64,000 bases of DNA from Patescibacteria group bacterium. GTDB taxonomy: Bacteria > Patescibacteriota > Patescibacteriia > UBA1558 > GWA2-36-10. Shown in pieces: positions 1 through 56,298 of this stretch; the stretch's first letter is position 1; the number at the start of each line of letters is the position of its first letter. Both the position numbers and the translations under genes were made by a program. The stretch is taken from NCBI GenBank assembly GCA_041665505.1, contig JBAYIR010000001.1:19108-83107 (forward strand). The letters run 5' to 3'. A model generated the notes under the pieces. It was not told where the DNA came from. It saw only the letters and a program-made list of their open reading frames with translations, and ran no database searches.

Positions 1-596
1 CTCTGTATAAAATTGGCCCATGAAAATGGCAAGAAGCGACGAAGGATGCCTAGGACTGTGCTAACAAAAAATAATTCATCCCAAATGCCTAAACCATTTG
101 TACCGATAAACAAGCGAATAATATTTCCAATTCCTGGCTCTACAGTCCAGTTGAGATAAGCACCGGTGCTTTTGAGGTAATATGGTAATAGTAAATAAGA
201 TATTGTGGCAGTAATAAAAATCCAAGCTATTTCTTTGTGAGACCATTTGCGTCCATGATGGAAAGTGAAACGGACTAAATGATCTTTATAAATATAACGA
301 GAAACAAAATAGGGGATACTGACAGCTAAAGCTAATGTTGTACCCATCTGAAACATGTGGGCATAACTAGTATCAGTGGTAATTTGAGTAATAGCTAATA
401 AGGCTAAAGAAATATAAACTAATAATAGTTCTTTAATAAATTTTTTAGGGCAGTAATACAAACTTATTAAACCAAAAACTAATATCAAAAAGCCTAGTGG
501 TTTTATTTGTAGGGCAATTAAAATAATGCCGGCACTAGCTAGTAATGTCAGACAGATGATCTCAGCTGTATTTACTAAATATTTTTTGTGAAACAT
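1..596 (-). CDS. CPBP (CAAX protease/Abi) family intramembrane metalloprotease, 5' part only (C-terminus lies beyond the window start)
   Basis: Minus-strand ORF from the ATG at 594-596 runs in frame to position 1. The product is multi-TM and carries WDELFFV, an EExxFR-like CPBP motif 1. Confidence 0.55.
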   Translation of the reverse strand, partial: MFHKKYLVNTAEIICLTLLASAGIILIALQIKPLGFLILVFGLISLYYCPKKFIKELLLVYISLALLAITQITTDTSYAHMFQMGTTLALAVSIPYFVSRYIYKDHLVRFTFHHGRKWSHKEIAWIFITATISYLLLPYYLKSTGAYLNWTVEPGIGNIIRLFIGTNGLGIWDELFFVSTVLGILRRFLPFSWANFIQ

Positions 597-2014: not shown

Positions 2015-2043
2015 TTGATTTTTTTGTTTCCTAGTCGTAAACT
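2015..2043 (+). promoter_or_regulatory. Sigma70-like promoter TTGATT-17-TAAACT driving the GC-rich radical SAM gene
   Basis: Direct motif read in AT-rich DNA, followed by AAGGAAAGAGAGG Shine-Dalgarno and ATG at 2107. Confidence 0.45.
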
Positions 2044-2106
2044 CATAAGGTTAGTCGTTATTTGTCAACCGAAGGAACTGAAACTGAAGGAAAGAGAGGA
2101 CTAGTC

Positions 2107-3633
2107 ATGTTGATAGTAGGAATCGAACCCAAAGCTCCTGGACTGCATATGTTTACGCAAGTGTACACGCCGCGGGCGGGTCTACCGAGGTTACTCCCCC
2201 GAGCTCAGGAACTCGGACATCAGTGCGTCATCTTCTGTGAAGAGTTGCGTCAATCGCAGCTCGATTGGACTCTGGTCTCCAAGGCGGATTTGATCTTGGT
2301 CTCGTCAACCACCTCGACTGCGCCACGCGCTTACCAGCTCGTGGCCAAGGCCAAAAGGCTGAATCCGCGGGCGACTATACTTGGTGGAGGACCTCATTTC
2401 ACTTTCGAGTGTCAGGAGGCGCTGGAGAGTGGTATTGATTTCGTCTTCCGTCATTGGGCAGACAGCAGTTTCTTTGAGTGGCTGGAGTGGTATCAGTCAC
2501 TTGAGGATACTCAGGTGATTAGCGGTGACGATTTGCGTCGCCTGTCAGAAATTGGCGGTTTGGCCTTCATGACGGGCAATCAAGTCCACAAGACGGCTAT
2601 GCCCAGGCAGGTTGACCCTGATTCATGGGCCACGCCTGATTTCCGCTTGGTGACTGGCTACAAGCCAAGAACTCTGACAATGATCACCAGTGAAGGATGT
2701 GATCACAAGTGTGAGTTCTGCTCGGAGTGGACCATGCACGGTGGAAAGTACCGTGTTCGTTCAGCTGAGAGAGTCTTGGCAGACCTTGTTTTTTACCGAA
2801 GAATCTATGGGAGGATTCCGATTTTCTTCGGAGATGACAACTTGGCTGCTGACCAGAAAGACAGCACTGGTCAGGTGACTGTTTCTGGTGTTGATCGTTT
2901 GACACAGCTGTGTCAGATGATCATTGATCATGGTTTGCAGGGTTCATATTCTGGTCAGGTTCGTCTGGCCTTGGCTGACCATCCGGGGGTCTTGGCTTTG
3001 ATGAGCCGAGCGGGCTTTAATCGAGCCTGTATTGGCTATGAATCGATAAACCCCGACAATGCCCAAGCTACGGGCAACAAGCTGGAGTTTGCTCGCATGG
3101 GTGAACAGACAGCTATGTTTCACAAGCATGGTATTGCTGTCCATGCGATGTGGATCATGGGTTTTGATCCTGATACTTTGGCCACCATCGCTGAAACAGT
3201 GAAGGCGGCCATCAACTGGCGGATTGAGACCAACCAATTTATGGTTTTGGTGCCAATTCCTGGTTCACCACTGAGGAAACGTCTAGAAAGAGAGGGGAGA
3301 ATCATTCATTCGGCGGGTTGGGATAAATACGACGGACACCATGTCGTATTCTACCCCAAACTGATGAAGTCTTGGGAACTCCAGGCAGCAGTGATGCTCA
3401 GAGCTATGCCCAAGGTCTACAACCTGGGACAAACCTTGGGCATTTACCTGTCTAGCAATTTCCGTACCTTGGTGAGATGGATTAACCGTCGGGCGCCTCA
3501 TCCTGGTATTGAGTTTCAGAGTCATACCATCACTCTGGTCTTGCGAGTGGTGGGACGTAACATGGTTAGGCGGGTTGGTAAACCCGCTAGAGACTACTTC
3601 GAGGAACTGAGGAGGTCGCCTACCAACAGGTAG
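2107..3633 (+). CDS. B12-binding-domain radical SAM protein (class B rSAM), compositionally foreign (~55% GC)
   Basis: N-terminal B12-binding-like region (ILVSSTTSTAPRAY...ILGGGPHFT) and a radical SAM CxxxCxxC box (SEGCDHKCEFCSE). A strong SD lies 8 nt before the ATG at 2107. The ORF track's TTG start at 2062 lacks an SD. Confidence 0.75.
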   Translation: MLIVGIEPKAPGLHMFTQVYTPRAGLPRLLPRAQELGHQCVIFCEELRQSQLDWTLVSKADLILVSSTTSTAPRAYQLVAKAKRLNPRATILGGGPHFTFECQEALESGIDFVFRHWADSSFFEWLEWYQSLEDTQVISGDDLRRLSEIGGLAFMTGNQVHKTAMPRQVDPDSWATPDFRLVTGYKPRTLTMITSEGCDHKCEFCSEWTMHGGKYRVRSAERVLADLVFYRRIYGRIPIFFGDDNLAADQKDSTGQVTVSGVDRLTQLCQMIIDHGLQGSYSGQVRLALADHPGVLALMSRAGFNRACIGYESINPDNAQATGNKLEFARMGEQTAMFHKHGIAVHAMWIMGFDPDTLATIAETVKAAINWRIETNQFMVLVPIPGSPLRKRLEREGRIIHSAGWDKYDGHHVVFYPKLMKSWELQAAVMLRAMPKVYNLGQTLGIYLSSNFRTLVRWINRRAPHPGIEFQSHTITLVLRVVGRNMVRRVGKPARDYFEELRRSPTNR

Positions 3634-3643
3634 GACCAGAGAG

Positions 3644-3690
3644 CCCGTTGTCCTCGCGCCAAGCGCGAGGACAACGGGTGTTTTTATTTT
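3644..3690 (+). terminator. Rho-independent terminator with a perfect 16-bp GC stem plus T-run
   Basis: cccgttgtcctcgcgc-caa-gcgcgaggacaacggg followed by tgtttttatttt. Confidence 0.7.
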
Positions 3691-3713
3691 CGGCAATTTG
3701 TTATAATATAGTC

Positions 3714-4106
3714 ATGCTTTCTAAAAAGTATAAACAACAAATTATATTTTTACTTTTAGCCGCTTTATGGGGTTATTTGATTTTTTATCTTTCGGATATA
3801 CCAGATTTAGCTACTAATTTACCACCTAAATATGATTTTATTTTACGCAAGTTAGCTCATAGCTTTGTTTTTTTAGTATTAACTTATTTGGTAGCTGCCA
3901 GTTTGGATAGATCAGAGCGTCATTATTTACTTTTTGTGATTGTAGCAGCTATTACTTATGCTTTGATAGATGAGATTCATCAAACTTTTGTCAGTGGTCG
4001 GGTGGGCAGTGGTCGTGATATATTGATAGATTCAATTGGTGTATATTTTGGTGTTTGGCTTTATAAAATTCGGCCACCTAAAAAATTATTTAAATTTATA
4101 AAATAA
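3714..4106 (+). CDS. VanZ-like family membrane protein
   Basis: LRKLAHSFVFLVL...DEIHQTFVSGR...DILIDSIG matches the VanZ signature. The start is taken as MLSKKYK; the ORF-track start at 3648 overlaps the terminator. Confidence 0.6.
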   Translation: MLSKKYKQQIIFLLLAALWGYLIFYLSDIPDLATNLPPKYDFILRKLAHSFVFLVLTYLVAASLDRSERHYLLFVIVAAITYALIDEIHQTFVSGRVGSGRDILIDSIGVYFGVWLYKIRPPKKLFKFIK

Positions 4107-5319: not shown

Positions 5320-5707
5320 TGGTGGAGATGAGGGGTATCACACCCCTGTCTGGCAAATGTCCTAATACACTTCTACAAGCTTATTCAATTTTGTGGTTTA
5401 AATTGTTGGCTCTAAAATTGACAAAAAACCAACAACCGAGCTAGTTTTTTTGTTTCAAAATACTTGTACTAACTCCAGGTATTTCTAGCCTGAAAAATAT
5501 GGCGCCTCTAGTCAAGCTCAGGCGGCTTAGCCTAGAAACGGTCGAGGCACAATTTAGGCCAAGACTGGTGCAAAGCTAGGAACTTTGAAAAGTTCTTTTA
5601 CTTTGGCAAAAGTGTTTTCTGCACTTATTTTAGTGTAATTTTTTACGAGATCACGAACTCAACTTGCTATATATCACTTCATCTGACGTCAAATAAAAAA
5701 CATCCCC
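5320..5707 (-). ncRNA. ssrA: tmRNA (SsrA)
   Basis: Minus-strand 5' end is GGGGAUG...UUUGACG. The 3' end has GGAC, a T-arm, CAUCUCC-A-CCA, and an acceptor stem with a G3:U70 wobble (Ala identity). A candidate tag ORF (AENTF...FAPVLA*) ends in TAA. The gene sits 4 nt downstream of the smpB stop. Confidence 0.65.
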
Positions 5708-5711
5708 TTAA

Positions 5712-6164
5712 TTAAAAATTTTTCAATTTTCTTAAAATGTTTCTATTGATATCCTTTCTTTTGATATCTTCTCGTTTGTCAAATTTCCTTTTTCCTTTAA
5801 CTAAAGCAATTTTTACCTTAATTAACCTTCGCGTAGTATACACTGAAACAGGCATTATTGTCAAGCCCTTCTCCTTGGTTTTACTGGATAAATATAGTAT
5901 TTCTTTTTTAGTTAAAAGTAATTTGCGGTTGGCATCTGAATCGTAGTTTTTCATACTTTGTAGAGAAGCTTTGGCATAAATAGGAATATGTACCTTTTTG
6001 ATGTAGGCTTGACCATTTTTAATAGAAATAAAAGCGCCTTTAAGACTAATATGTCTAGTTTTAATAGATTTCACTTCAGCCCCAGTCAAAACTAAACCAG
6101 CCTCAAACTCTTCTAAGTTTTGGAAATTATGATTAAGCTGTTTGTTTATGGCGATTGTAGGCAT
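5712..6164 (-). CDS. smpB: SsrA-binding protein SmpB
   Basis: IAINKQ..NY...EAG..L.G.EVKS...ISLKGA...YIKK..I is conserved SmpB sequence, and the gene is adjacent to the tmRNA. Confidence 0.85.
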   Translation of the reverse strand: MPTIAINKQLNHNFQNLEEFEAGLVLTGAEVKSIKTRHISLKGAFISIKNGQAYIKKVHIPIYAKASLQSMKNYDSDANRKLLLTKKEILYLSSKTKEKGLTIMPVSVYTTRRLIKVKIALVKGKRKFDKREDIKRKDINRNILRKLKNF

Positions 6165-16166: not shown

Positions 16167-16195
16167 TTGACAAAAAATGTTGAATAGAGTATTAA
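16167..16195 (+). promoter_or_regulatory. Sigma70-like promoter TTGACA-17-TATTAA for GC-rich cassette B
   Basis: Direct motif read, followed by an AAGGAGA Shine-Dalgarno at 16233-16239. Confidence 0.45.
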
Positions 16196-16245
16196 TAAAT
16201 AGATTTGTTCCCATCACTGTTTCACCCTGGACAAGGAGACCTGAG

Positions 16246-16698
16246 TTGGAGACTGACAGCAAAAAAGCCAAGAAACCCCTGGTCGAACTCGACATATCGG
16301 TCAGGTATGGCCGCCTGACTGAAAAGCCGGCGCCGACTTATCAGGGCCAGGCGGTCGGCGAGGTTCTCAAGGACTTGCTCACCTCAGGGCCTATTTCGCG
16401 GACTTCTTCTGACATCAGTGTCAGTGTTGACTTCGGTCACAAGATGGTCCATCTGGTCCGTATGCGACTGCTTCGTTCGTCCAGCTTCGTCGGCGCATTC
16501 GGCGTCATCACGGTGGTACTTCGTCCCTTGGCCGTTGGTTTCTGCCATGGCCACGACCAGACCTTCCAGTTTTGCCCGGATGATCGTCTGATTGGCCAGC
16601 GTGGGCAGATCATCAAGCTGACGCTGGGTTACCCCGAATTCAAAAGCGAGACCTGGCACAGGGAGAAGCAGTCACAGGAAGTCAAGCAAGCTTCCTAG
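16246..16698 (+). CDS. Hypothetical protein (~150 aa) of GC-rich cassette B (~58% GC). The TTG start is inferred from the SD, and the coding strand is not fully certain.
   Basis: The ORF frame is continuous with the ORF-track ORF 16177..16698. AAGGAGA lies 6 nt upstream of a TTG. No family was recognised. A 91-aa antisense ORF (16384..16659) also exists. Confidence 0.35.
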   Translation: METDSKKAKKPLVELDISVRYGRLTEKPAPTYQGQAVGEVLKDLLTSGPISRTSSDISVSVDFGHKMVHLVRMRLLRSSSFVGAFGVITVVLRPLAVGFCHGHDQTFQFCPDDRLIGQRGQIIKLTLGYPEFKSETWHREKQSQEVKQAS

Positions 16699-17522: not shown

Positions 17523-18827
17523 TTATTTTTTTACAATTTTGGCTTTGACTCCCCAATCTAGGGCCTCTGTTATTTCTACTTGATAAAAATTACCAATTTT
17601 TAGAGCTATTTTATTTTCAATATAAGCTGGTAAATAATTTGATAGTTTACCAATGTTGATAAATTTATTTTTTTCTTTATTGACTGTATCAATTAAAACT
17701 TCACGTTTTTGGCCAACTAGATTTTTGTTAAAGTTTAAAGACTGAGTGGTCAATTGGTCGTTCATTTCTTGCCAGCGTTTCTTTTTGATAGATTTTGCTA
17801 CATCATCTTTATACATTTTAGCAGCAATAGTACCAGTGCGGGAAGAGTATTGAGAAATGTACATTAAATTATAATTTAAGTCTTTGACCAATTTTTTGGT
17901 CATTTGAAAATCTTTGTCTGTTTCGCCACAAAATCCGACAATGATATCGGTAGACAAAGTAATATTAGGCAGGGACTTTTTTATTTTTTTGATGAGTTTT
18001 TTATAAGACGCTATGCTGTAGTGTCTATTCATTTTTTTAAGCACTTGATCAGAACCACATTGGACAGGTAGATGTAAATAGTCATTCAGATTTTTACATT
18101 TAGCCATAACGCTAATCAACTCATCACTCATATCATAAGGATGGCTGGTTAAAAATTTTAACCAAAAATGTTTAGACAGGCCGTCTATTTTTTTTAGTAA
18201 GCTAGGGAAGTTAATTTCCTGTCCTTTTTTATCTAAACCATAGCTATTAACGTTTTGTCCCAAGAGTACTATTTCTTTGTAGCCTTTGCTTAGCAAGTCT
18301 TTAACTTCATTTATAATATGTTCTGAGGGGCGAGATGTTTCACGACCTCTAGTATATGGTACAGCACAATAAGAACAAAATTTGTTGCAGCCAGTCATAA
18401 TTGGTACATAAGCCCGGTAGCTTGATCCGTAGCTAGGGGAGATATCAAAAAAATCTGGTAAAGCCAATTTTTCTTCAGGATGGATAGCGGCTAAATCACG
18501 ACCCAAATTTTTTAAATTTTTTATATCAATAAAAAGATCAAACTGATGGGCCAATTTTTTTTGATCGGACTCCAAAACGCAGCCAGATAATATAGTAATT
18601 AGTGGTCTGGTTTCTTTGGTCAATTGCCAGTTATGTATTTTGCTGTGGATTCTATCTACCGCAGCCTGTTTAACAGAGCAAGCTATAATAGCAATTAGAT
18701 CAGCGTCCATTTCATTTTTAGTTTCCTGGTAACCAAGCTTTTTTAAAACAGTCGCTAGTCTTTCACTATCAGAATAGTTCATCTGACAGCCAAATACAAT
18801 GAGGTAAAATTTTTTCTTTTTTATCAT
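17523..18827 (-). CDS. miaB: tRNA-i6A37 methylthiotransferase (radical SAM MTTase with TRAM domain)
   Basis: N-terminal MTTase domain, a radical SAM CNKFCSYC box, and a C-terminal TRAM domain. The gene is adjacent to miaA. Confidence 0.85.
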   Translation of the reverse strand: MIKKKKFYLIVFGCQMNYSDSERLATVLKKLGYQETKNEMDADLIAIIACSVKQAAVDRIHSKIHNWQLTKETRPLITILSGCVLESDQKKLAHQFDLFIDIKNLKNLGRDLAAIHPEEKLALPDFFDISPSYGSSYRAYVPIMTGCNKFCSYCAVPYTRGRETSRPSEHIINEVKDLLSKGYKEIVLLGQNVNSYGLDKKGQEINFPSLLKKIDGLSKHFWLKFLTSHPYDMSDELISVMAKCKNLNDYLHLPVQCGSDQVLKKMNRHYSIASYKKLIKKIKKSLPNITLSTDIIVGFCGETDKDFQMTKKLVKDLNYNLMYISQYSSRTGTIAAKMYKDDVAKSIKKKRWQEMNDQLTTQSLNFNKNLVGQKREVLIDTVNKEKNKFINIGKLSNYLPAYIENKIALKIGNFYQVEITEALDWGVKAKIVKK

Positions 18828-21867: not shown

Positions 21868-22905
21868 TCACATGCGTTTGGGCAGTTTGAGTTCTATACC
21901 GCCCTCTGGCATGCCACCACCACTGCAACAGTTGGAAGCAGGGATGATCAAGAGCTGGCCTCGATGACCTTGTCCTTTTTGTTCGAAGGGACGCGATTCA
22001 TTTACTTGCCACACCGTTGCATTTGTTGGTTTTTCGCTACGTAGCCAGCTGAGAGCTGGAAAGCCATCTCCACATTTCCAGTTAGCGAAATGTTCGGCTA
22101 TGCTGGTTTCATCAAAATAGAGTGCCGGATCTTGAATGTGCAGAGAGATATGACGCATGTGATTTGGTCTGAACTTGTCACTGCTAGTGCCTTCCCGCCA
22201 GCAGGGTTGACCACGAAAAGCTCTAGCCGGGTAGACTTTTGCGTATCCGTTGTCAGGATGGAAAACAATCACCCAGTTGGTTGACAATATCTTCGTGCCG
22301 TCATCACTGACAGCTACTGCCTGGTTGAAGTCCTTTTCAGCCTTACTGCGAGTAGCTGCAATTTTTTGATCCATGAGTTGGCACATGATATCTCGCGACT
22401 GCTGCCACTTGTTACCACTGCGGTACCAGCTACCATAAAGGCAGTAGAGCAAGCCATGGGGCCAGAAGCCTTCACTGATGCCATCATTTCTCTGATTGAA
22501 TGTCAGGAACATCCGATCGTCTTCCTTACCGCTGACAATTATCAAACAACATGCCGTTCCTACATATAGTTTGACGTCACGGAGTCGGTGCATTATAGCC
22601 AGCAGTGGTTCTAGTTTTTCAAGCCATTCCATCATACTATTAGATTCCACTTTAGGGTCAAAGGGGAACCACATTGGATCAGCACAGTCGAGTAGCAATT
22701 TTCTCATATCATGCTCTTCGACTACGTCACAGAGCAAGGTAGATCCCAGATATTTGGACCACATCTCATGATCTGGGTGAGGGGATTGCCGCTCTTGTTT
22801 AAGCCAATCAGCGATATCGCGACGGCGAAACAGGTTGTCTTCAGCAAAGCGATTGAGCACGAAATCCTTACGGATTTCAGACAGGGGTTTAGTGAAAAGA
22901 GCCAT
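21868..22905 (-). CDS. Hypothetical 345-aa protein of cassette C (~48% GC, Cys/Trp-rich); no family recognised
   Basis: An AGGAGG SD sits 8 nt upstream of ATG (MALFTKPLSEIRK...). This is shorter than the ORF-track ORF, whose first Met lacks an SD. The promoter TTGACA-N18-TGATTAAAT lies at 22965-22996. Confidence 0.6.
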   Translation of the reverse strand: MALFTKPLSEIRKDFVLNRFAEDNLFRRRDIADWLKQERQSPHPDHEMWSKYLGSTLLCDVVEEHDMRKLLLDCADPMWFPFDPKVESNSMMEWLEKLEPLLAIMHRLRDVKLYVGTACCLIIVSGKEDDRMFLTFNQRNDGISEGFWPHGLLYCLYGSWYRSGNKWQQSRDIMCQLMDQKIAATRSKAEKDFNQAVAVSDDGTKILSTNWVIVFHPDNGYAKVYPARAFRGQPCWREGTSSDKFRPNHMRHISLHIQDPALYFDETSIAEHFANWKCGDGFPALSWLRSEKPTNATVWQVNESRPFEQKGQGHRGQLLIIPASNCCSGGGMPEGGIELKLPKRM

Positions 22906-22964
22906 GGGTATCAACCTCCTAAAGTTGGTGCAGTAGTTGTCTAAACTACCGCACATACCCACAG

Positions 22965-22996
22965 TCATTTAATCAGAATATTACATTATTTGTCAA
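22965..22996 (-). promoter_or_regulatory. Sigma70-like promoter (TTGACA plus an extended -10 TGATTAAAT) for cassette C
   Basis: Direct motif read on the minus strand. Confidence 0.4.
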
Positions 22997-34389: not shown

Positions 34390-34464
34390 ATGTTTTTTCT
34401 AATTTGGCATCTGGGATTTAATCCGAGATCAAAAATTAATACCCCAATAAAATAGCAGATTATC

Positions 34465-34518
34465 AAAAAAAAGTCAAGAATAAAGACAATACCCCGCCGC
34501 ACTTGATGCGCGGCGGGG
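34465..34518 (-). terminator. Rho-independent terminator ending the cassette D operon
   Basis: ccccgccgc-acttgat-gcgcggcgggg, with a T-run on the minus strand. Confidence 0.55.
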
Positions 34519-34551
34519 CTGAAATTTATCGTTGACCACATTGGTGGTGGT

Positions 34552-34821
34552 CTAGTCGATCCTGAAAACTTGTGCATATTCTTCGTTCGGTAGTATGGTC
34601 AACAATTCCATAGGAATCATGGAATCTATGGCCATGCCCTTCATACGAACAGGCACTTCCAGCTTGAAGCTGGTAACGAGGTTGTCCTTGCCCAGCCGCA
34701 TCTCAACTACCTGCGGTGGACCCAGCATAGTGCCTTCAGCACCAGCCGGCCAGGCCTTGAAGCTGACAGCCAGCCGTATCGGCTGGTGCCAGAATGGTTC
34801 TGTGATGGCTCGAACTAGCAT
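34552..34821 (-). CDS. Hypothetical 89-aa protein (cassette D, third gene)
   Basis: GAAAGGAAAG SD lies 5 nt upstream of ATG. GC-rich. No family recognised. Confidence 0.5.
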   Translation of the reverse strand: MLVRAITEPFWHQPIRLAVSFKAWPAGAEGTMLGPPQVVEMRLGKDNLVTSFKLEVPVRMKGMAIDSMIPMELLTILPNEEYAQVFRID

Positions 34822-34853
34822 CTTGGCTTTCCTTTCGTTTGCAGTGGCGGGGC

Positions 34854-35111
34854 TTAGTCATCAAAATCATCGTAGTACGGATTGACGAACATCAAGGGCC
34901 CCCCGAAAGAGGGGCACAGTTCGATCCGTTCGACCTTTATTCCCTGAAGCTGTTCCCACGGTGTTTGACGGGGCCGAGCCTCCTCCTGAGCCTCGAGTTC
35001 CTTCACGCGCCTCACGATGCATTGGCCCAAGATGTTTGCGATCTGCAATCGCATTGCATTCAGCTCATCAACTTCGGTTTCGGTAACATGTTTTGCTCCT
35101 TGATCCGGCAT
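34854..35111 (-). CDS. Hypothetical 85-aa acidic protein with a C-terminal YYDDFDD (cassette D, second gene)
   Basis: GGAAGGGG SD before the ATG. The start codon lies 24 nt after the upstream gene's stop. Confidence 0.5.
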   Translation of the reverse strand: MPDQGAKHVTETEVDELNAMRLQIANILGQCIVRRVKELEAQEEARPRQTPWEQLQGIKVERIELCPSFGGPLMFVNPYYDDFDD

Positions 35112-35136
35112 GTTTCACCCCTTCCGTTTTCGGCAA

Positions 35137-35562
35137 CTAGGCCGGGTCAAACAATTCGACTAGTCCCTCGATCGTGGCTACAAGAGTTTGGAGTCCAGCT
35201 AGAGTGAACATCAGGATTGCAGCCAGGAAACAGCCAAAGGGTAGAGCTAGACCAAACCAGCTCACGCCAATTAGCAGTTCCAGGACGGAGAAGGCGTCTT
35301 TGCTCTGGTCGAGCCTGGAGATAGCGAGAAAAGTCCCACCGGCAACTGACAGAAGTGGCCACCAGGAGTAGTCCAGAGTCATCATCCATCCGGACGTGCT
35401 TATCAGCACCACGGCGATGACTTGCCGGCGTTTGAACATGGGGTGTGAGAAACTGAGTCCCGCGATCATCAGGCTCAGACCCGCCACAACACTATTGTCG
35501 TGGAACATAGCCACAAACAGCATGGCAATGCCAGCTAGGACACTCAGTAGGGCGTTTTTCAT
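35137..35562 (-). CDS. Hypothetical 4-TM membrane protein (cassette D, first gene)
   Basis: GGAAGAAAGGGAAAG SD lies before the ATG (MKNALLSVLAG...). There are four hydrophobic helices. Confidence 0.55.
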   Translation of the reverse strand: MKNALLSVLAGIAMLFVAMFHDNSVVAGLSLMIAGLSFSHPMFKRRQVIAVVLISTSGWMMTLDYSWWPLLSVAGGTFLAISRLDQSKDAFSVLELLIGVSWFGLALPFGCFLAAILMFTLAGLQTLVATIEGLVELFDPA

Positions 35563-35902
35563 GGTCTTTCCCTTTCTTCCTTGGGGGATCACTGGCTTTA
35601 GCCAGACTTTGCTAGGCGTTTTTAGCACACAAGGCTCTATCTACTATGGGCTTTGACCCAATTTACAAATGAATTGTACAGTGACTTTAACAATTAAATA
35701 TAATCTGATTATCAGCCTTTTGTCAATTACTGGCTTAAAGGGCTTGATTTATTTAAATTTTTATGTTAAAGTATTGCTGCTTAATTAATCACAAGTATTT
35801 TCATTGATTATTTGATTAACCTTCCCCAAATAAAAAAAGGGGCATTCAAATAGGAAAATACGGGTAAGCCCGCTTGTAGCGAGGCTAAAGAAAGGAAAAA
35901 AT

Positions 35903-45266: not shown

Positions 45267-46715
45267 GTGCACGTTTCGCCATATCCTAGTCCATCGGCTT
45301 CACACGCTTCACCAAAACAAACTAGGATGCTTGGTGCATCCAGAATGGAGCTGCAGATGATTACCCGTCAGGACAACCCTAGCATGTCTGCTCAGGCAGA
45401 CGTTATCGTCATTGGTGGGGGCGCCAACGGTGCTCTTATCACCTTTGAGCTCGCCAAGCGTGGCTACCAAGTCATCACCCTGGAAAAGGGTGCACTTGGT
45501 AACGGATCCAGCAGTCGTTCCGCGGCTTGTATCCGCGCTCAGTTCGGCGATCCTCGTAACGTCCTCGGCATGGTGTATGCCGAGTGGTTCTTCGAGAACT
45601 TCTACTCGATCTTGGGTGTTCCCGAAGAGGAGCAGAATGAGTGGCTGTTTGAGCAAAACGGCTACCTGTTCCTCTATGAGGATCCTGGTCAGATCGAAGA
45701 TTCTGCCAAGAGCAAGGCTTCTGCCAAGGCATGGCTCGAGGCACTGAAAGCTGCTCACATGCAACAGAAGCTTGGTTTGCCGGTTGAGATTCTCGATCCC
45801 TCTACTGTCCACGCCCGCTACCCGCACATCAACCCTGAACTTTTGATCGGCGCGACCTTCTGCCCCACCGACGGTTTCCTCAACCACGACCTCATCTACC
45901 TCAGGGGATTCGAGATGGCCCAGCGGCACTACGGTGCCCAGGTCTTCACGAACACCGAGGTGATCGGCGCTACTCGTGCCAAAGACGGCACGATCACTAC
46001 TCTGCACACCACAAGTGGTGACTTCTCGGCCAAGTGGATTGTCAACGCGACCAATGCGTGGGCGCCACGGCTGAGCAAGTTGCTGGGCGGCATGGAACTG
46101 CCCATCACACCCTTTAAGCGGTATTTGTACTGGGTACAGCCGCACTCGTCCGTGTTTTCGGACGATAGTTGGAAGAAACTACCCTTCACCATCTTCGGGA
46201 TGGGTCCGGACAGAGGATCCTACTGTCGGCCGCATCACAACGAGTTGATGTACGGTTGGGCTCACGAAGCTGAACCTGAACCGCAGTTCAGCGACGAAGA
46301 CCAGGACAGGATCGGTGCTGGTTTCCATCCCGATTCGGCAAGTGGCGACCGAGACTACTGGCTGGAGTTCCGTCTCAACGTCAACGACTTCTCGGAGTTG
46401 TTGGCCAACACTGGTCGGGCTCGGGCAACTGCCGGGTACTACGGCCAGACGCCGGATCATCAGCCAATCATCGATGTGGATACGCAAGTGTCCAACCTGA
46501 TCCATGCGGTCGGATTCTCTGGCCACGGCTTGATGATGTCTCCGGTGACTGCTCAGGTGGTCGCCGCCCTCGTCGATGGCCGGGGCGAGATCGTGAACAG
46601 GCAGATTTGTCTGCCACCGATGTTCAGGCCCGAGATGACCAAGCTCATGCTCGATTGCAGTCACTTCTCGGCCACGAGGGACTTCTACGCTCAGAAGGAA
46701 GGAGCTTACATCTAG
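45267..46715 (+). CDS. FAD-dependent oxidoreductase, DAO family (glycine/sarcosine/D-amino-acid oxidase-like); GC-rich (~58%)
   Basis: DVIVIGGGANGALITFELAKRGYQVITLEKG is a GxGxxG Rossmann motif, and the C-terminus has a GFSGHGLM motif. A GTG at 45267 lies 4 nt after AGGAGG. Alternative starts are 45228 (ORF track) and the ATG at about 45357. Confidence 0.75.
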   Translation: MHVSPYPSPSASHASPKQTRMLGASRMELQMITRQDNPSMSAQADVIVIGGGANGALITFELAKRGYQVITLEKGALGNGSSSRSAACIRAQFGDPRNVLGMVYAEWFFENFYSILGVPEEEQNEWLFEQNGYLFLYEDPGQIEDSAKSKASAKAWLEALKAAHMQQKLGLPVEILDPSTVHARYPHINPELLIGATFCPTDGFLNHDLIYLRGFEMAQRHYGAQVFTNTEVIGATRAKDGTITTLHTTSGDFSAKWIVNATNAWAPRLSKLLGGMELPITPFKRYLYWVQPHSSVFSDDSWKKLPFTIFGMGPDRGSYCRPHHNELMYGWAHEAEPEPQFSDEDQDRIGAGFHPDSASGDRDYWLEFRLNVNDFSELLANTGRARATAGYYGQTPDHQPIIDVDTQVSNLIHAVGFSGHGLMMSPVTAQVVAALVDGRGEIVNRQICLPPMFRPEMTKLMLDCSHFSATRDFYAQKEGAYI

Positions 46716-46742
46716 ACATGTGTTCATTACAGTTTCGGACCA

Positions 46743-46808
46743 GGGGGTCTACAGCACATAAGCGATTGTTTACAATCGTGTGTCTGTAGCCCCCTGAATT
46801 TTTTTATT
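46743..46808 (+). terminator. Long imperfect palindrome plus T-run, acting as a terminator
   Basis: cagggggtctacagcaca...cgattgt-tt-acaatcg...tgtgtctgtagccccctg followed by aattttttta. Confidence 0.5.
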
Positions 46809-46848
46809 CTAAATATTATACTATATTGATTATTTACGAGGCTTTGTA

Positions 46849-46877
46849 TTGACAAATTGTATTTTTTACGATAATTT
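46849..46877 (+). promoter_or_regulatory. Sigma70-like promoter (TTGACA ... GATAAT) for the small cassette E gene
   Basis: Direct motif read. An AGGAGG SD lies at 46927-46932. Confidence 0.45.
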
Positions 46878-46941
46878 TTATATTACGTTCCAAAATTGGG
46901 GCGTTTGCTAGGAAACAGTGCATTTAGCAGGAGGCAATTCA

Positions 46942-47271
46942 ATGCAGGCCGACAAAATTATCGGTGAGACCACCCGTGTGTTCCCTCGACTGCGCTGCGT
47001 GGCTATCAAGCTGGCACCGAACGACACGGTTCTCAGGGAGGGGATGACCGTTTCCTTCCATCGCGAGGCTAGCGATATGGGAGCTTTGGGCTTCCATGAC
47101 AGCACCCACAAGATCACCTCGATCGAGGTCAACCGGACGCCGGTGGCTGAGGCAACTCATCAGGATGGTATCTGTGCTGTTTGGATCGGTGGTTCGGTAG
47201 ATGATTTGCCGCCTCGTCGCTGCATCGTCTCGGTCATCAACGACCGGGCACCTGATCAGCCCACGACTTGA
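46942..47271 (+). CDS. Hypothetical 109-aa protein, partner of the FAD oxidoreductase
   Basis: AGGAGG lies 9 nt before ATG (MQADKIIGETTRV...). GC-rich. No family recognised. Confidence 0.55.
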   Translation: MQADKIIGETTRVFPRLRCVAIKLAPNDTVLREGMTVSFHREASDMGALGFHDSTHKITSIEVNRTPVAEATHQDGICAVWIGGSVDDLPPRRCIVSVINDRAPDQPTT

Positions 47272-47312: not shown

Positions 47313-47389
47313 GCGCCGTTAGCTCAATTGGTTAGAGCACTAGGCTTACAAGCTAGAGGTTGAGGGTTCAAGTCCCTCACGGCGTACCA
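47313..47389 (+). tRNA. tRNA-Val(TAC)
   Basis: Manual cloverleaf. Acceptor GCGCCGT/ACGGCGT (G1:U72), D-arm TAGCTCAATTGGTTAGAGC, anticodon loop CTTACAA, T-arm GAGGGTTCAAGTCCCTC, and an encoded CCA. Confidence 0.75.
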
Positions 47390-47400
47390 CACAATTTGGT

Positions 47401-47476
47401 GGGGTTATAGCTCAATTGGCAGAGCATCAGACTCAAAATCTGAATGTTAGGAGTTCAAATCTCCTTAACCCCACCA
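47401..47476 (+). tRNA. tRNA with anticodon CAA and a short (5-nt) variable arm. The overall sequence resembles tRNA-Trp(CCA) with C35 changed to A.
   Basis: Manual cloverleaf. Acceptor GGGGTTA/TAACCCC, anticodon stem TCAGA/TCTGA, loop CTCAAAA, variable arm ATGTT, T-arm AGGAGTTCAAATCTCCT, discriminator A, encoded CCA. Confidence 0.65.
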
Positions 47477-47494
47477 CTGTTCTTCTCTACAGAA

Positions 47495-47570
47495 CCCTAT
47501 ATAGCTCAACTGGACAGAGCCCCTGGATTTCTTCTCAGGAGCCGTGGAGGTTCGAATCCTCCTATAGGAG
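47495..47570 (+). tRNA. Non-canonical tRNA-like gene (Arg-TCT-like layout) with an 8-nt anticodon loop, a 6-nt variable region, a C1:A72 mismatch and no encoded CCA; possibly a pseudo- or recoding tRNA
   Basis: A canonical D-arm (TAGCTCAACTGGACAGAGC) and T-arm (GGAGGTTCGAATCCTCC) are present. The anticodon stem CCTGG/TCAGG encloses ATTTCTTC. Confidence 0.4.
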
Positions 47571-48616: not shown

Positions 48617-50002
48617 ATGGATTTATCAAGCCTAATTTTATTTTTTGTATATATAGTAAATCTTTGTTTACTGGTTTTTGTCTTTTTTCATAAGGATAGA
48701 CAAAGATCGTGGCCATTTTTTTGGATGCTATTATTATTGGTGCTGTGGCAGAGTACGGAATTATTGAATATTTTTTACTTTATTCATCAAGATAAAAGCA
48801 TTTTACTTTTAGCTGTCCAAGCCGGCCTTTTGCCAGCTTTGTATTTAGCGCCAGCTTTTGTTAAGTTGGTTTTTTCTTTATTTGGGAAATGGCAACATGT
48901 AGGGAATTGGCGCAAGTTTTTATGGTATTTGCCAGCTATTATTATGTCAGGCTTTGTATTTACACCTTACAATTTAGCAGAGGTCATAGTCAGAGATAGT
49001 AGACTTTATTATATAGCGGGGCCAGTTTATTGGTTTTTTGCTGCTTATTTTGTCTTGTTGATGGCTTATGGTTTGTATATTTTGGCCAAAAATAGAAGGA
49101 CCGCTGGACCGATTGTGCGTCGGCAAATCGCTTATATTTTTGTAGCTACAGCTTTGGTGTCTATTAGCGGCTTATTATTTAATATTTTATTACCAATTTT
49201 ATCTAAACATAATTTTTATTATCTAGGAGTAAATAGTACTATATTTTTCACAGTAATACTGACTTATGCTTTGTTTAGACATAGATTTTTTGATTTGCGT
49301 ATTTCTTTTTATCAAACTCTTATCAATTTGTTCAAATTATTTATTACCGGTTTCATTTATTATATTTTTTATTTTTTATTACACGATTTGATAAAAGTAG
49401 ATTTTAATAATATACAAAATGTAATATTTTTACTTTTACTATTTGGTCTTAGCGCACCATTTATATTCAATGCAGTTCATAAATTTTTATTAGCTCTATT
49501 TATCACTCCTGAGCATGATATCAGAGTATCTAGTGATAAAATCGCAGAGATACTGCGCTCTAGTCGTGATTTGGATATTTTGCTGTCCAGATTATCCAAA
49601 GAAATAAATAAGGTAATTGGCTATAAAGAATTATTTATTTATCTTTCCAAGAAAAAAGATTTAGATACATTCTACCAGGTTTTTCCTATGGGGGAGAGGC
49701 TACTTAATAAAGCGGATAGCGAGCTTATTAAATATTTGGCTCAAAAGAAGACAATAGCCAATCGAGCGGAGATAGAGTATTTTTTTGTAGACAAGATGTT
49801 GATTACTGAGATGGAGACTATGCATGTAGATATAGCTTTACCGATTTTTTATAATAAACAGCTCTTGGGTATTTTGATGATTGATAATGATGGTGAACTC
49901 TTGTCCATTCAAGAATTGCAGTTTCTCAAAGAATTAAATAAGTATTTAGATATTGCTGTCGGCAGTTTGCTATTGTATCAGCAGGATTTAGCAGGTAAAT
50001 AA
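48617..50002 (+). CDS. HisKA_7TM-type 7TM receptor module fused to a C-terminal GAF domain (no kinase domain)
   Basis: The N-terminal 7 TM region ends in the conserved YALFRHRFFDLRI, matching the 7TM region of the kinase at 57436. The C-terminal ~150 aa are GAF-like. Confidence 0.55.
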   Translation: MDLSSLILFFVYIVNLCLLVFVFFHKDRQRSWPFFWMLLLLVLWQSTELLNIFYFIHQDKSILLLAVQAGLLPALYLAPAFVKLVFSLFGKWQHVGNWRKFLWYLPAIIMSGFVFTPYNLAEVIVRDSRLYYIAGPVYWFFAAYFVLLMAYGLYILAKNRRTAGPIVRRQIAYIFVATALVSISGLLFNILLPILSKHNFYYLGVNSTIFFTVILTYALFRHRFFDLRISFYQTLINLFKLFITGFIYYIFYFLLHDLIKVDFNNIQNVIFLLLLFGLSAPFIFNAVHKFLLALFITPEHDIRVSSDKIAEILRSSRDLDILLSRLSKEINKVIGYKELFIYLSKKKDLDTFYQVFPMGERLLNKADSELIKYLAQKKTIANRAEIEYFFVDKMLITEMETMHVDIALPIFYNKQLLGILMIDNDGELLSIQELQFLKELNKYLDIAVGSLLLYQQDLAGK

Positions 50003-50012
50003 TCATAAAATT

Positions 50013-50702
50013 ATGAGTGTTCAAAACATTTTACTTTTATTAGCGGGACTTATCAATTTAACAATGAGTATTTTGGTTTTCTCCCGAGGTGTCAAGCATA
50101 ATAAAATAAATTTTTATTTTTCTCTTTTGACTTTTTTTAATTTTTTATGGGCACTTAATCTTATTGTAATAAATTTAGGAATTAATTATGAGCTTACTAG
50201 ATTTATGGCTAGTTTGGTATATCCAGTAGCCTTGATGATAGTGGTCATTTTGTTTTATTTTATAATACATTTTCCTTATAAATTGCTTGAAATACCAAAA
50301 ATTTATAAATTGTTTATTAACTTGTCGATATTATTTTATAGTATATTTTGTATTTTTTTCTATCAAATTTTTGTTTGGAAAGTTTCTCTAGGTCCTAAAG
50401 TTATAATTTATTATGAATTTATATCTTATTCCATTTATACTTTTATACTTATTATTTTAATGTTGGCTGGCATAGTAATATTATTTTTAAAATTAAAAAA
50501 AGCTGAAGCAGCTTTTAAACAGCAACTATGCTTAGTATTATTAGCGGTGATTATTGGTACGGTCATGGGCAGTTATTCCAATTTGTTTTTAATGTATTTC
50601 CATAATCTTGATTATAACCACTTTGGTCCTTTATTTACTTTGGTTATAAATTTTATAGCCTTTTATCTAATTTTTTTAAAAGGCAAAATAAACAATAAAT
50701 AA
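50013..50702 (+). CDS. Stand-alone HisKA_7TM-like 7TM membrane protein (paralogue 1)
   Basis: The N-terminal ~45 aa are near-identical to gene 50707. The product is multi-TM with no cytoplasmic domain. Confidence 0.55.
   Translation: MSVQNILLLLAGLINLTMSILVFSRGVKHNKINFYFSLLTFFNFLWALNLIVINLGINYELTRFMASLVYPVALMIVVILFYFIIHFPYKLLEIPKIYKLFINLSILFYSIFCIFFYQIFVWKVSLGPKVIIYYEFISYSIYTFILIILMLAGIVILFLKLKKAEAAFKQQLCLVLLAVIIGTVMGSYSNLFLMYFHNLDYNHFGPLFTLVINFIAFYLIFLKGKINNK
50040..50160 (+). repeat. About 120-bp direct repeat (roughly 85% identical copy at 50745..50865) marking the tandem duplicated 5' ends of the 7TM paralogues
   Basis: Direct sequence comparison of the two gene starts. Confidence 0.6.
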
Positions 50703-50706
50703 ACAT

Positions 50707-51405
50707 ATGACAATCACAACACTAGGCTTACAAAACTTTACTTTATTGCTGGCTGGGCTGATTAATTTGACAATGAGCATTTTGGTTTTTTCTCGCGGAG
50801 TAAAGCACAATAAAATAAACCTTTATTTTTCTCTACTGACTTTTTTTAATTTTTTGTGGGCGTTTGCTCTACTACTAGCTAATATTTTTTCTAACAACGC
50901 CTTAGCGGAAATATCTTATAGAACATCATATCTCGCTGCAGTTGGTATAGCTGTCTCCTTGTTTTATTTCTCATTATATTTCCCTTACAAGATAAAGAAT
51001 TTAAAGTTGTATAATAACGTATTAGTTCTAATTTTTTCAGCAATTATTTTAGTATTTATATATTCTAAGTGGCATATAATTTTTTTTGAGAGGGGACTAA
51101 ATTTATCTAATTGGTTAATTGATTATTATAAACCTTTTTATGTAGTTTATAGTTTATTTTTTCTATCATTAGTTATCTCAGCTATATGTTTTTTAGTAAG
51201 CAGATTATATAATTTGGAAAGCTGGCTAAAGAGGAGAATAAAAATTTTATTAATTACTATTATAGTAGGTCTGGTTTTTGGTGTTTATTTTGATTTAATA
51301 CTTTGTTATTTTGGAAACTTTAACTATATTTGGTTTGGTCCAATATTTACTGCTTTTATGAATATATATGTTTTTTATCTTATATTCCACAACAAAGAAA
51401 AATAA
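50707..51405 (+). CDS. Stand-alone HisKA_7TM-like 7TM membrane protein (paralogue 2)
   Basis: LLLAGLINLTMSILVFSRGVKHNKINxYFSLLTFFNFLWA is shared with gene 50013. Confidence 0.55.
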   Translation: MTITTLGLQNFTLLLAGLINLTMSILVFSRGVKHNKINLYFSLLTFFNFLWAFALLLANIFSNNALAEISYRTSYLAAVGIAVSLFYFSLYFPYKIKNLKLYNNVLVLIFSAIILVFIYSKWHIIFFERGLNLSNWLIDYYKPFYVVYSLFFLSLVISAICFLVSRLYNLESWLKRRIKILLITIIVGLVFGVYFDLILCYFGNFNYIWFGPIFTAFMNIYVFYLIFHNKEK

Positions 51406-54743: not shown

Positions 54744-55286
54744 ATGGAAAATATAAAAGATTTACATATAGATAATGTCGAATATAAACTTTCTAATATG
54801 AAAGTAATTTTATTCTCATTTTTATTCTCTTCACTATCTTTAGCAACTATTTGGGTTACTCACCAATTTGGTTTAGCAGGTCCAGTTTTTTTACCTATGC
54901 ATTTTTTTATTTTAATAGCAGCCTTATCTTTTGGGTGGAGGGTAGGTTTATTGACGGGTATTTTGGTCCCTATAATGAGTTATTTTCAGTCTGGTATGCC
55001 AATTTTACCAATTTTACCAAGAATAATTTTAGAAGTAACAGCTTATGGATTCTTTGTGGGTATTTTTAGAGAGAAACTAAAATTTAATATGATAATATCA
55101 TTGTTATTGGCAATGATTATTGGTAGAATATTTTCTGGTCTCGGAGGGTTAGTTTTCAATGGGATTAGCTTTTTTGGCCACATTTTTAGTATTATAAAAG
55201 TCGGTTTTTTAGGGATCATATTACAATTTTTATTAGTTATACCTATAAGTAAATTTATTTTAAAATGGATGCATTTAAAAAATTAG
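54744..55286 (+). CDS. Putative ECF-transporter S component or small polytopic membrane protein
   Basis: 180 aa with about 5-6 TM. No solute-specific motif recognised. Confidence 0.35.
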   Translation: MENIKDLHIDNVEYKLSNMKVILFSFLFSSLSLATIWVTHQFGLAGPVFLPMHFFILIAALSFGWRVGLLTGILVPIMSYFQSGMPILPILPRIILEVTAYGFFVGIFREKLKFNMIISLLLAMIIGRIFSGLGGLVFNGISFFGHIFSIIKVGFLGIILQFLLVIPISKFILKWMHLKN

Positions 55287-55678
55287 AAAAAAATTTATTG
55301 GAAGGCTACAGCCTAATAGTTATTAAGGATGATAAGGAAATTTTTAAGTCCAAAGATCATGGCATAAAAGCCCTTTTTCAGTTATTAGACAAAGATAAAG
55401 ATATTTTAAAACACACTATAGTTTTAGATAAAAGAGTTGGGAGAGCTGCTGCGCTGTTGTTGATTAAAGGTGATATAAAAAAATTAATAACTCTTAAATT
55501 GAGTAAATCAGCTAAGCAGTCTTTAAAGGAAAATAATATATTATTTGAGGCACAGGAAATAGTGGATAATATAATGAGTAAAGATGGCTCTAAGATTTGT
55601 AGATTAGAAGAATTATCACAGGATAGAGAAGCTAATGATTTTTTTGAAATTTTAAAAATTAAAAAAATATTTGAATAG
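55265..55678 (+). CDS. Hypothetical protein (possibly DUF1893/TM1506-like)
   Basis: 137-aa soluble ORF that overlaps the previous gene's end. Confidence 0.35.
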   Translation: MDAFKKLEKNLLEGYSLIVIKDDKEIFKSKDHGIKALFQLLDKDKDILKHTIVLDKRVGRAAALLLIKGDIKKLITLKLSKSAKQSLKENNILFEAQEIVDNIMSKDGSKICRLEELSQDREANDFFEILKIKKIFE

Positions 55679-55683
55679 ATAAA

Positions 55684-56298
55684 ATGTTTTATAGTTTAAT
55701 AAAAATTTTATTTGCGCCTATTATAAAATTTTTTTGGCTTGGGGAGATTAAAGGTATTAATAATATTCCCACAAAAAAATCGGTTATTTTGTGTGCCAAC
55801 CATACTAGTTATTTAGATTTTTTACTTTTAGCAAGTGTATTGTCAAAAAAAGTTTATTTTTTAGCTGCAGAAGTTTTTTTTAAGAGTAAAATATGGTATC
55901 CTTTGGTAAAATTTACTGGTCAAATTAGAGTCGATAGAAATGCAGAAGATAAAAGTAAAACTTATATAGGAGTAGATAATATTTTAAATAGGCATGATAC
56001 CCTATGTCTATTCCCGGAGGGGACGAGATCGAGATCTGGTAAGTTACAAAAAGGGTATAATGGGGCTGTAAAATTTGCTTATAAATATAAAGTGCCAATA
56101 GTACCTATAGGCATATTAGGCGCATTCGAAGCTTGGCCACCTCAAAAAAAAATACCAAAAATAAAAAAGATTAATCTAGTATTCGGTGAACCGTATAGAG
56201 TTATCACAGATTCATTTGAGTATGAAACTAGTATATTAATGAATAAAATAGCTAAATTATCAAATCAGAATTATAAATCAAATGATAAAATATTATAA
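55684..56298 (+). CDS. plsC: 1-acyl-sn-glycerol-3-phosphate acyltransferase
   Basis: CANHTSYLD (HxxxxD) and FPEGTRS motifs. Confidence 0.8.
   Translation: MFYSLIKILFAPIIKFFWLGEIKGINNIPTKKSVILCANHTSYLDFLLLASVLSKKVYFLAAEVFFKSKIWYPLVKFTGQIRVDRNAEDKSKTYIGVDNILNRHDTLCLFPEGTRSRSGKLQKGYNGAVKFAYKYKVPIVPIGILGAFEAWPPQKKIPKIKKINLVFGEPYRVITDSFEYETSILMNKIAKLSNQNYKSNDKIL

Follow-up and report, generated by a model that had tools for sequence, protein, structure and literature searches.

Methylation is the commonest chemistry of the class B radical S-adenosylmethionine (SAM) enzymes. The class I architecture consists of a five-strand, five-helix Rossmann fold plus the radical SAM barrel, and the related Rossmann-like domains of AprD4 and ArsL bind no cobalamin (PMC12931638). 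The present analysis concerns a single gene, here called the rSAM gene, on a stretch of 64,000 nucleotides (nt) from a Patescibacteria group bacterium (contig JBAYIR010000001.1, positions 19,108 to 83,107; "the window" below means this whole stretch, and all positions are counted within it). The gene encodes a protein of the same layout and is much richer in G+C (GC) than the DNA around it. It was probably, though with considerable room for doubt, acquired long ago from outside the candidate phyla radiation (CPR) by an ancestor of a group of Patescibacteria, and has been retained with its class B architecture intact at a locus shared by related genomes.

In domain order the rSAM protein resembles the class I class B enzymes QCMT/MgmA (9ccb), TsrM (6wte), TokK (7kdx), CysS (9n1b), and OxsB (5ul4); common to all is a five-strand Rossmann domain followed by a partial triosephosphate isomerase (TIM) barrel with a CxxxCxxC motif and a helical C-terminal domain. 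Both domains that a reading of the sequence alone (the sequence-only reading) had proposed are recovered by Pfam above the gathering cutoffs, B12-binding (PF02310) at residues 58-121 (E 1.6e-11, 44.5 bits against 32.1) and Radical_SAM (PF04055) at residues 192-366 (E 1.7e-10, 41.8 bits against 29.5). The CxxxCxxC box that it had pointed out, CDHKCEFC, occupies residues 198-205, and an alignment of 102 homologues shows no variation at its three cysteines (C198, C202, and C205) or at G310 and E312. An AlphaFold2 model, for which this alignment served as input, has a mean predicted local distance difference test (pLDDT) score of 95.8, with values above 90 in the barrel, and a predicted template modelling (pTM) score of 0.93. 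In the model, the N-terminal domain has five strands (E2-7, E39-44, E62-66, E90-94, and E112-114) with helices between them, a five-helix Rossmann fold, which is followed by the partial barrel and an extended helical region at the C-terminus. The mark of the radical SAM superfamily, CxxxCxxC in a partial TIM barrel, was found by motif, Pfam, and model, and that of the class I architecture, an N-terminal five-strand Rossmann B12-binding domain preceding the barrel, by Pfam and model. By its domains, motif, and predicted fold, the gene product is a class-B-type radical SAM protein of an uncharacterised subfamily.

The reading frame on the forward strand (2107-3633) has 508 codons and no internal stops. 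A mechanical open reading frame (ORF) call begins further upstream, at TTG 2062, but because all the orthologues have MLIVGIEP as their N-terminus, ATG 2107 is taken as the true start. The orthologues share 59-71% amino acid identity while their 4-fold degenerate sites are near saturation (identity 0.31-0.48, against 0.25-0.30 expected at saturation); on these alignments the gene is intact and under purifying selection.

When the model was compared with the Protein Data Bank (PDB) by Foldseek, the top matches were 9ccb (QCMT/MgmA), AprD4, OxsB, CysS, TsrM, and TokK, with E between 2.5e-19 and 1e-14, template modelling (TM) scores of ~0.6-0.68 for the class I structures, and identities of just 12-17%. 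AprD4 (6fd2), a radical SAM 1,2-diol dehydratase, is second in rank but has the highest TM-score (0.68, with a root-mean-square deviation of 5.0 over 488 columns), and it is also the sole PDB match found by sequence (E 0.001). It shares with the rSAM protein the layout of a Rossmann-like domain plus barrel, at 16% identity; it binds no cobalamin, however, and acts on an aminoglycoside within a gene cluster (PMC12931638). The rSAM gene likewise differs from those of the class I class B enzymes in that it lies outside any biosynthetic cluster, in a reduced Patescibacteria genome.

The best NCBIfam match is BchE (TIGR02026; residues 47-432), at 93.7 bits against a cutoff of 481, followed by HpnJ (TIGR03471; residues 59-421), at 78.6 against 578. 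The other scores and cutoffs are 64 and 600 for PhpK, 35.6 and 650 for HpnR, 46.3 and 360 for the ladderane radical SAM model, and 21 and 500 for AprD4. Because all the scores are far under their cutoffs, the rSAM protein falls outside every curated equivalog, and membership of the BchE, HpnJ, PhpK, HpnR, ladderane, and AprD4 groups is ruled out. Some homologues carry the name BchE in their source databases; no bacteriochlorophyll or hopanoid genes were found near the rSAM gene when the loci of its relatives and the genes of the window were scanned.

A search of 5.8 billion protein clusters returned the window protein and eight clusters at 61-71% identity to it, two of them named as Patescibacteria or Parcubacteria, which agrees with the CPR-like genome assumed in the sequence-only reading. 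So does a match identical to another gene of the window, which bears the name 'Patescibacteria group bacterium'. Beyond a gap follow a group at 45-51% identity and a large group at 31-38% from many anaerobic phyla. The two named orthologues (P0003 and P0009, 61-68% identity) are called 'B12-binding domain-containing radical SAM protein' at NCBI and show no substantial difference from the window gene, their length, motifs, promoter, and 20-mer (see below) all being as in the window. The family is already publicly annotated, under a generic name only and without an assigned function. The DNA around all eight close relatives was fetched, giving nine loci with that of the window.

Three genomic contexts are seen among these loci. 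In Context A (the window, L001, L005, L007, L009, and L097), the rSAM gene and vanZ lie on one strand and are followed on the other strand by rplT, rpmI, and infC, and by smpB where the contig reaches. In Context B (L002), a Memo/LigB gene lies upstream and grpB downstream, and in Context C (L094 and L095) pth lies upstream and pepA downstream. The neighbouring vanZ gene has an extended -10 box, TGTTATAAT (3699-3707), that ends 6 nt before its ATG at 3714, an arrangement kept in L001, L009, and L005. Because of this spacing, its mRNA is probably leaderless. The vanZ gene forms a separate transcription unit, tied to the rSAM gene through synteny only. Directly upstream of the rSAM unit is a gene for a 421-residue fusion of an EamA-type transporter and a riboflavin kinase (663-1928, +), present also in L001, L005, and L097. 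Further downstream, smpB (5712-6164, -) is adjoined by the transfer-messenger RNA gene (5320-5707, -), which scores 115 bits with Rfam and was missed by ARAGORN.

As predicted from the sequences, the rSAM gene is a self-contained single-gene transcription unit with a promoter, a 20-nt element, and a terminator (Table 1). A scan for consensus promoters upstream of the gene gave nothing at a threshold of 9 of 12 positions. That the gene has a promoter of its own, as had been read from the sequence, is borne out by conservation rather than by closeness to the consensus, the hexamers and their spacing (cTTGAT, 17 nt, TA(A/G)A(N)T) being kept in the orthologous loci across the three contexts. Upstream of the gene the nine loci can all be aligned, even though the silent sites of the coding sequences are close to saturation. 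The 20-nt element, which begins 5 nt past the -10 box and at, or close to, the start of the transcript, is kept in every one of them. This element occurs once in the window, against 0.02 occurrences expected by chance, and among the 98 loci fetched its 12-nt core was seen only ahead of rSAM orthologues. Promoter and 20-mer accompany the gene in all three contexts, and both the promoter and the leader are AT-rich, like the hosts.

In the leader, Rfam gave no credible match at either the gathering or the E-value threshold, RNAalifold predicted no pairs and no consensus fold for the leader alignment, and folding was less stable than that of shuffled sequences (z +1.69). These results speak against a cobalamin or SAM riboswitch or another structured leader. 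Since the 20-nt element has neither an Rfam match nor a fold, it more probably serves as a protein-binding operator or as an unstructured signal at the 5' end than as a riboswitch, and it is listed as a candidate of this kind. In L097 the leader is lengthened by an insert of ~50 nt (~4035-4085), which includes a small hairpin and lies between the 20-mer and the ribosome-binding site.

The perfect 16-bp stem that had been read into the terminator is confirmed at 3644-3659 / 3663-3678; it is followed by GTTTTTATTTT and has a predicted fold energy of -38.7 kcal/mol. A strong hairpin lies 3' of every orthologue with readable downstream sequence (in L009 the region is masked by a run of N), and each of these hairpins differs in sequence.

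Table 1. Features of the rSAM locus (positions in the window, or residues of the protein where so marked).
Feature	Position	Strand	Description
sigma-70-type promoter of rSAM gene	2015..2043	+	-35 TTGATT 2015-2020, 17-nt spacer, -10 TAAACT 2038-2043
20-21-nt element AGGTTAGTCGTTATTTGTCAA	2048..2068	+	consensus AAGTTAATyGTTrTTTGTCAA; candidate operator or 5'-end element
ribosome-binding site GAGAGG	2094..2099	+	7 nt before ATG; purine-rich GAGG aligned in orthologues
rSAM gene, coding sequence	2107..3633	+	508-aa class-B-type radical SAM protein (Pfam, NCBIfam, alignments, AlphaFold model, Foldseek against PDB)
Rossmann-like B12-binding domain	residues ~1-130		
radical SAM partial barrel	residues ~190-400		
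basic helical C-terminal domain	residues ~420-505		
intrinsic terminator	3643..3690	+	16-17-bp G+C-rich stem, 3-nt loop, T run
vanZ	3699..4106	+	130 aa, GC 0.298 (native); Pfam VanZ E 1.3e-14, NCBIfam vanZ_1

The GC content of the rSAM gene is 0.515, and 0.56 at third codon positions (GC3), while the remainder of the window has a GC content of 0.346 and the neighbouring genes have GC3 values of about 0.18-0.30. The step in GC is sharp at both ends (~2040-2100 to ~3690). The anomaly noted in the sequence-only reading thus stands, but the contrast given there, 55% against 30%, was overstated, both figures having been rounded outward (51.5% against 34.6%). An excess of the gene over its flanks, of 4 to 17 points, is present in all nine loci. 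In order of gene GC, with flank GC in brackets, the values are 0.384 (0.348) for L095, 0.410 (0.329) for L094, 0.442 (0.355) for L007, 0.455 (0.347) for L002, 0.505 (0.355) for L001, 0.515 (0.346) for the window, 0.519 (0.356) for L005, 0.528 (0.377) for L097, and 0.552 (0.378) for L009. As a control, distant, non-CPR homologues were taken from among the matches listed in an alignment-based search of genome contigs; in most of these ~80 homologues from outside the clade, the GC of the gene is within ~5 points of that of its flanks. The window also holds a native radical SAM gene, for a MiaB-type methylthiotransferase (17523-18827, -), whose GC of 0.327 provides an internal contrast to the GC-rich rSAM gene.

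Islands and transferred genes have been described by the hundred in metagenome-assembled genomes (MAGs) of Patescibacteria (PMC12455944). Like compositional islands formed by horizontal transfer, the rSAM gene shows an excess of GC and GC3, a patchy distribution, and conflict between trees; unlike them, it is a single gene without mobility genes, repeats, or a tRNA target, and its position is kept across species. It also departs from the amelioration model (Lawrence and Ochman 1997, as cited in PMC12455944), in that its composition has not equilibrated though the silent sites of its flanks have. Between 1850 and 3850 no integrase or transposase ORFs and no flanking repeats were found, and the closest tRNA genes are at 47313-47570. 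The locus thus lacks the marks of a mobile genomic island, the borders being without integrase, repeat, tRNA target, or insertion scar.

Marks of horizontal acquisition were found in the deviant composition and, in neighbour-joining trees only, in a placement among other taxa and a patchy distribution. The clade formed by the nine Patescibacteria clusters is monophyletic, with a long stem, and is nested in a radiation in which every identified member is non-CPR. Among its closest relatives outside the clade, which are 44-51% identical, are a Zixibacteria MAG and genomes with GC contents of 44-56%. When the rSAM protein alone was searched against metagenome contigs, one locus was matched, at 25% identity. 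The gene is not private to the genome: orthologues stand at the same site in L001, L005, L007, L009, and L097. The sequence-only reading had called the gene foreign. The deviant composition and the non-CPR root of the family support this, while the five syntenic carriers speak against a recent or private import. It had also been held that a close homologue in syntenic position and of native composition would speak against a foreign origin; syntenic orthologues do exist, but the objection carries only half its weight, because they deviate in composition as well.

An ancestor of this Patescibacteria group would have acquired the gene once, and the related genomes would have kept it at the same locus. 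The GC excess would then be a leftover of the foreign origin, decayed unequally across the lineages, and its persistence may owe something to subsequent exchanges of the unit between Patescibacteria. Two more direct readings of the abrupt change in composition at both ends of the gene fare much worse. It is barely conceivable that a GC-rich fragment of another organism was joined into the metagenome-assembled contig, for the same junctions, to the AT-rich promoter and leader and to vanZ, recur in independent assemblies from four sources (ENA, JGI, NCBI, and Logan); an assembly chimera is excluded on this ground. A recent and private import from a GC-rich donor, with a composition not yet adjusted, would suit the GC of 0.515 against 0.346, the sharp borders, and the possession of a promoter and a terminator. 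It is nonetheless very improbable, because five related genomes hold the orthologue upstream of vanZ-rplT-rpmI-infC-smpB. The flanking proteins of these genomes are just 61-75% identical to those of the window, the silent sites of the rSAM orthologues are near saturation, and besides the window's own protein the top identity in the cluster search is 71%; the bare borders described above weigh in the same direction.

Several observations weigh against a single old acquisition followed by simple inheritance. Judged by VanZ, L20, and IF3 together, L001 and L005 are 85% identical and are grouped at 100% bootstrap, yet their rSAM proteins are just 64% identical, against 71% for L001 and L009 and 68% for L001 and the window. 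A split uniting L001 and L005 is absent from those recovered for the rSAM protein, and one uniting the window and L009 (84%) appears in the rSAM tree only. The identity to the outgroup is 0.476 for L005 and 0.515 for L001, a rate difference too small to account for the gap. Simple vertical descent of the rSAM gene, as far as these alignments go, is contradicted by this conflict. The composition raises a second difficulty. Decay of GC was described by a two-state (strong or weak base) model of the 4-fold sites of flanking genes, a rough estimate that assumes stationarity and uses 84-303 sites per pair. For the flanks, the compositional memory between lineages amounts to 0.05-0.1 (confidence intervals spanning 0), except for 0.23 between L001 and L005, and the same process applied to the rSAM gene would need an ancestral GC at 4-fold sites (GC4) of ~0.7 to >1 to give the present 0.5-0.6. 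Simple decay is strained, because the silent-site memory of the flanks is nearly erased yet the GC4 of the rSAM gene is still 0.5-0.6; the excess is larger than such decay predicts. Repeated lateral replacement, in which the unit moves among Patescibacteria or comes from an unsampled, GC-richer pool and overwrites resident copies, would maintain a high GC in the coding sequence while disordering the rSAM tree. It would thus explain the conflict between rSAM and flank trees, in which L001 and L005 are never sisters, as well as the promoter and 20-mer unit in three unrelated contexts and the GC excess beyond that allowed by decay since the lineages split. However, there is no known donor, the backbones of the nine carriers all have 33-38% GC, and no phage, plasmid, or viral-contig carrier above 30% identity turned up in searches. 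Promoter and leader share the AT-richness of the hosts, the adjoining vanZ has native GC and follows the flank tree, and the tree within the clade is star-like, so that part of the conflict may reflect rate variation. Repeated replacement is therefore judged unlikely, although a real share of the probability stays with it.

It may also be that selection holds the coding sequence G+C-rich, for example through mRNA stability or the avoidance of internal AT-rich signals, in which case the GC content would say little about origin. The persistence of GC4 values of 0.5-0.6 in five lineages despite the erased silent-site memory of the flanks points this way, as do the AT-rich non-coding parts of the unit, with the GC step exactly at the ATG, and the DAO oxidoreductase island described below, which is likewise kept GC-rich in a relative. 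Yet the orthologues in L095, L094, L007, and L002, with GC3 values of 0.28-0.43, are intact and conserved, so that a high GC is not required, and in the tree the clade is still placed amid relatives some of which are non-CPR bacteria. A conserved antisense ORF or RNA structure was neither sought nor encountered. Such selection is improbable. The reading preferred here remains an old acquisition by an ancestor of the Patescibacteria group, to which later exchange of the unit or a slowed AT-drift in the coding sequence could be added to explain the tree conflict and the GC excess.

With regard to function, the family suggests that a [4Fe-4S] cluster on C198, C202, and C205 would cleave SAM reductively to a 5'-deoxyadenosyl radical, which would take a hydrogen atom from an unactivated carbon in the substrate. 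Methylcobalamin in the Rossmann domain would then deliver a methyl group, and the cobalamin would need to be scavenged. By analogy with the known enzymes, this standard class B methylation mechanism is quite possible but somewhat short of probable, while some other cobalamin-assisted radical chemistry is unlikely. We infer the use of cobalamin from the B12-binding domain. Among the best-conserved parts of the family are the loops after Rossmann strands 3 and 4, SSTTSTAPRAY and GGGPHFTF, and their conservation suggests a bound ligand. Clustering of the neighbourhoods of ~90 loci revealed no conserved partner gene around the rSAM family. The largest cluster of neighbours probably consists of paralogous B12-binding radical SAM genes, the one member scanned, from L013, being such a gene. 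Within the Patescibacteria the rSAM gene has housekeeping genes on either side, an arrangement that argues against a natural-product or cofactor pathway; the tailoring in antibiotic, lipid, or cofactor pathways that had been suggested earlier thus found no support in the ~90 loci. Because the rSAM gene stands alone in every genome examined, a secondary metabolite is a less likely substrate than a common component of the cell (RNA, protein, or an envelope molecule).

Some results count against a cobalamin-dependent methylase. The best NCBIfam matches, BchE and HpnJ, are non-methylating enzymes. A scan of ~55 genes of the window, which covers 64 kb of the genome, turned up neither a gene for cobalamin synthesis nor an identifiable transporter for cobalamin. 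Nor is cobalamin bound by AprD4, which ranks second among the structural matches. The sequence-only reading had gone so far as to state that the enzyme needs cobalamin; this was drawn from the domain, and AprD4 and ArsL bind none with a related one (PMC12931638). An enzyme like these two, performing a dehydration, rearrangement, or cyclisation with SAM only, would remove the paradox of B12 in a reduced genome. The sequence match and top TM-score of AprD4 speak for it, as does the lack of cobalamin genes in the window. On the other hand, PF02310 is above its gathering score, the conserved loops suggest a bound ligand, the structure matched best by fold, 9ccb, is that of a cobalamin enzyme, and 64 kb is a mere fraction of the genome; a cobalamin-independent enzyme is accordingly regarded as doubtful. 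Nothing relevant to the use of B12 in CPR or Patescibacteria was found in the literature.

One gene cluster in the window (54744-57430) encodes the S-component of an energy-coupling factor (ECF) transporter (54744-55286, 180 aa), a TM1506/DUF1893 protein, an acyltransferase, and a DUF362 protein. This S-component is the sole candidate vitamin importer in the window, and no specific family could be assigned to it.

At least four further GC-rich islands are present in the window. The island at 45327-47271 directly follows proB/proC/proA and lies next to the genes for tRNA-Val, tRNA-Leu, and tRNA-Arg (47313-47570). It holds a gene for a DAO-family flavin adenine dinucleotide (FAD) oxidoreductase (45327-46715; 462 aa, GC 0.567, GC3 0.70) and an ORF of 109 aa (GC 0.579). 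The orthologue of the oxidoreductase in L099 is 77% identical, follows proC/proA/proS, and has a GC of 0.575 against 0.426 in its flank; the next relatives, at ~49% identity, include Chloroflexota/Ktedonobacteria. The pattern of the rSAM gene is thereby repeated. The other islands are at 16177-16698 (+; GC 0.536), between the gene for a phosphoenolpyruvate (PEP) utilizer and miaA, at 21868-22968 (-; GC 0.477), between guaB and an uncharacterised gene, and at 34400-35700 (GC ~0.53), between rpmE and rpsB, the last holding a membrane-like ORF of 163 aa (35137-35628, -). Pfam and NCBIfam gave no match in these three islands, and Rfam gave none in that at 34.4-35.7 kb. The most AT-rich part of the window (48617-51405 and 57436-60255; GC 0.25-0.30) contains three tandem paralogues consisting only of the seven-transmembrane (7TM) N-terminal region of a histidine kinase (HisKA_7TM), near a full 7TM-GAF-HisKA-HATPase kinase of 939 aa.

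Taken as a whole, a combined picture in which the coding sequence is actively kept GC-rich by selection or exchange of the unit, the protein is a cobalamin-dependent methylase of a core component that uses a scavenged cobamide, the 20-nt element regulates the gene, and the other islands arise by the same process is distinctly unlikely to hold in every part.

The genomes of Patescibacteria are very small, and for most cofactors these bacteria are believed to rely on other cells. If the interpretation given here is true, a B12-type enzyme is kept and regulated in such reduced symbionts, where it would modify some common component of the cell by a radical reaction not yet described. The rSAM locus is also a clean natural case for the time that a foreign composition persists under strong AT bias. 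Neither point is field-changing, and the family is already generically annotated in public records. In related genomes, one gene at one site spans all the stages between +4 and +17 GC points, and its tree is discordant with that of its neighbours.

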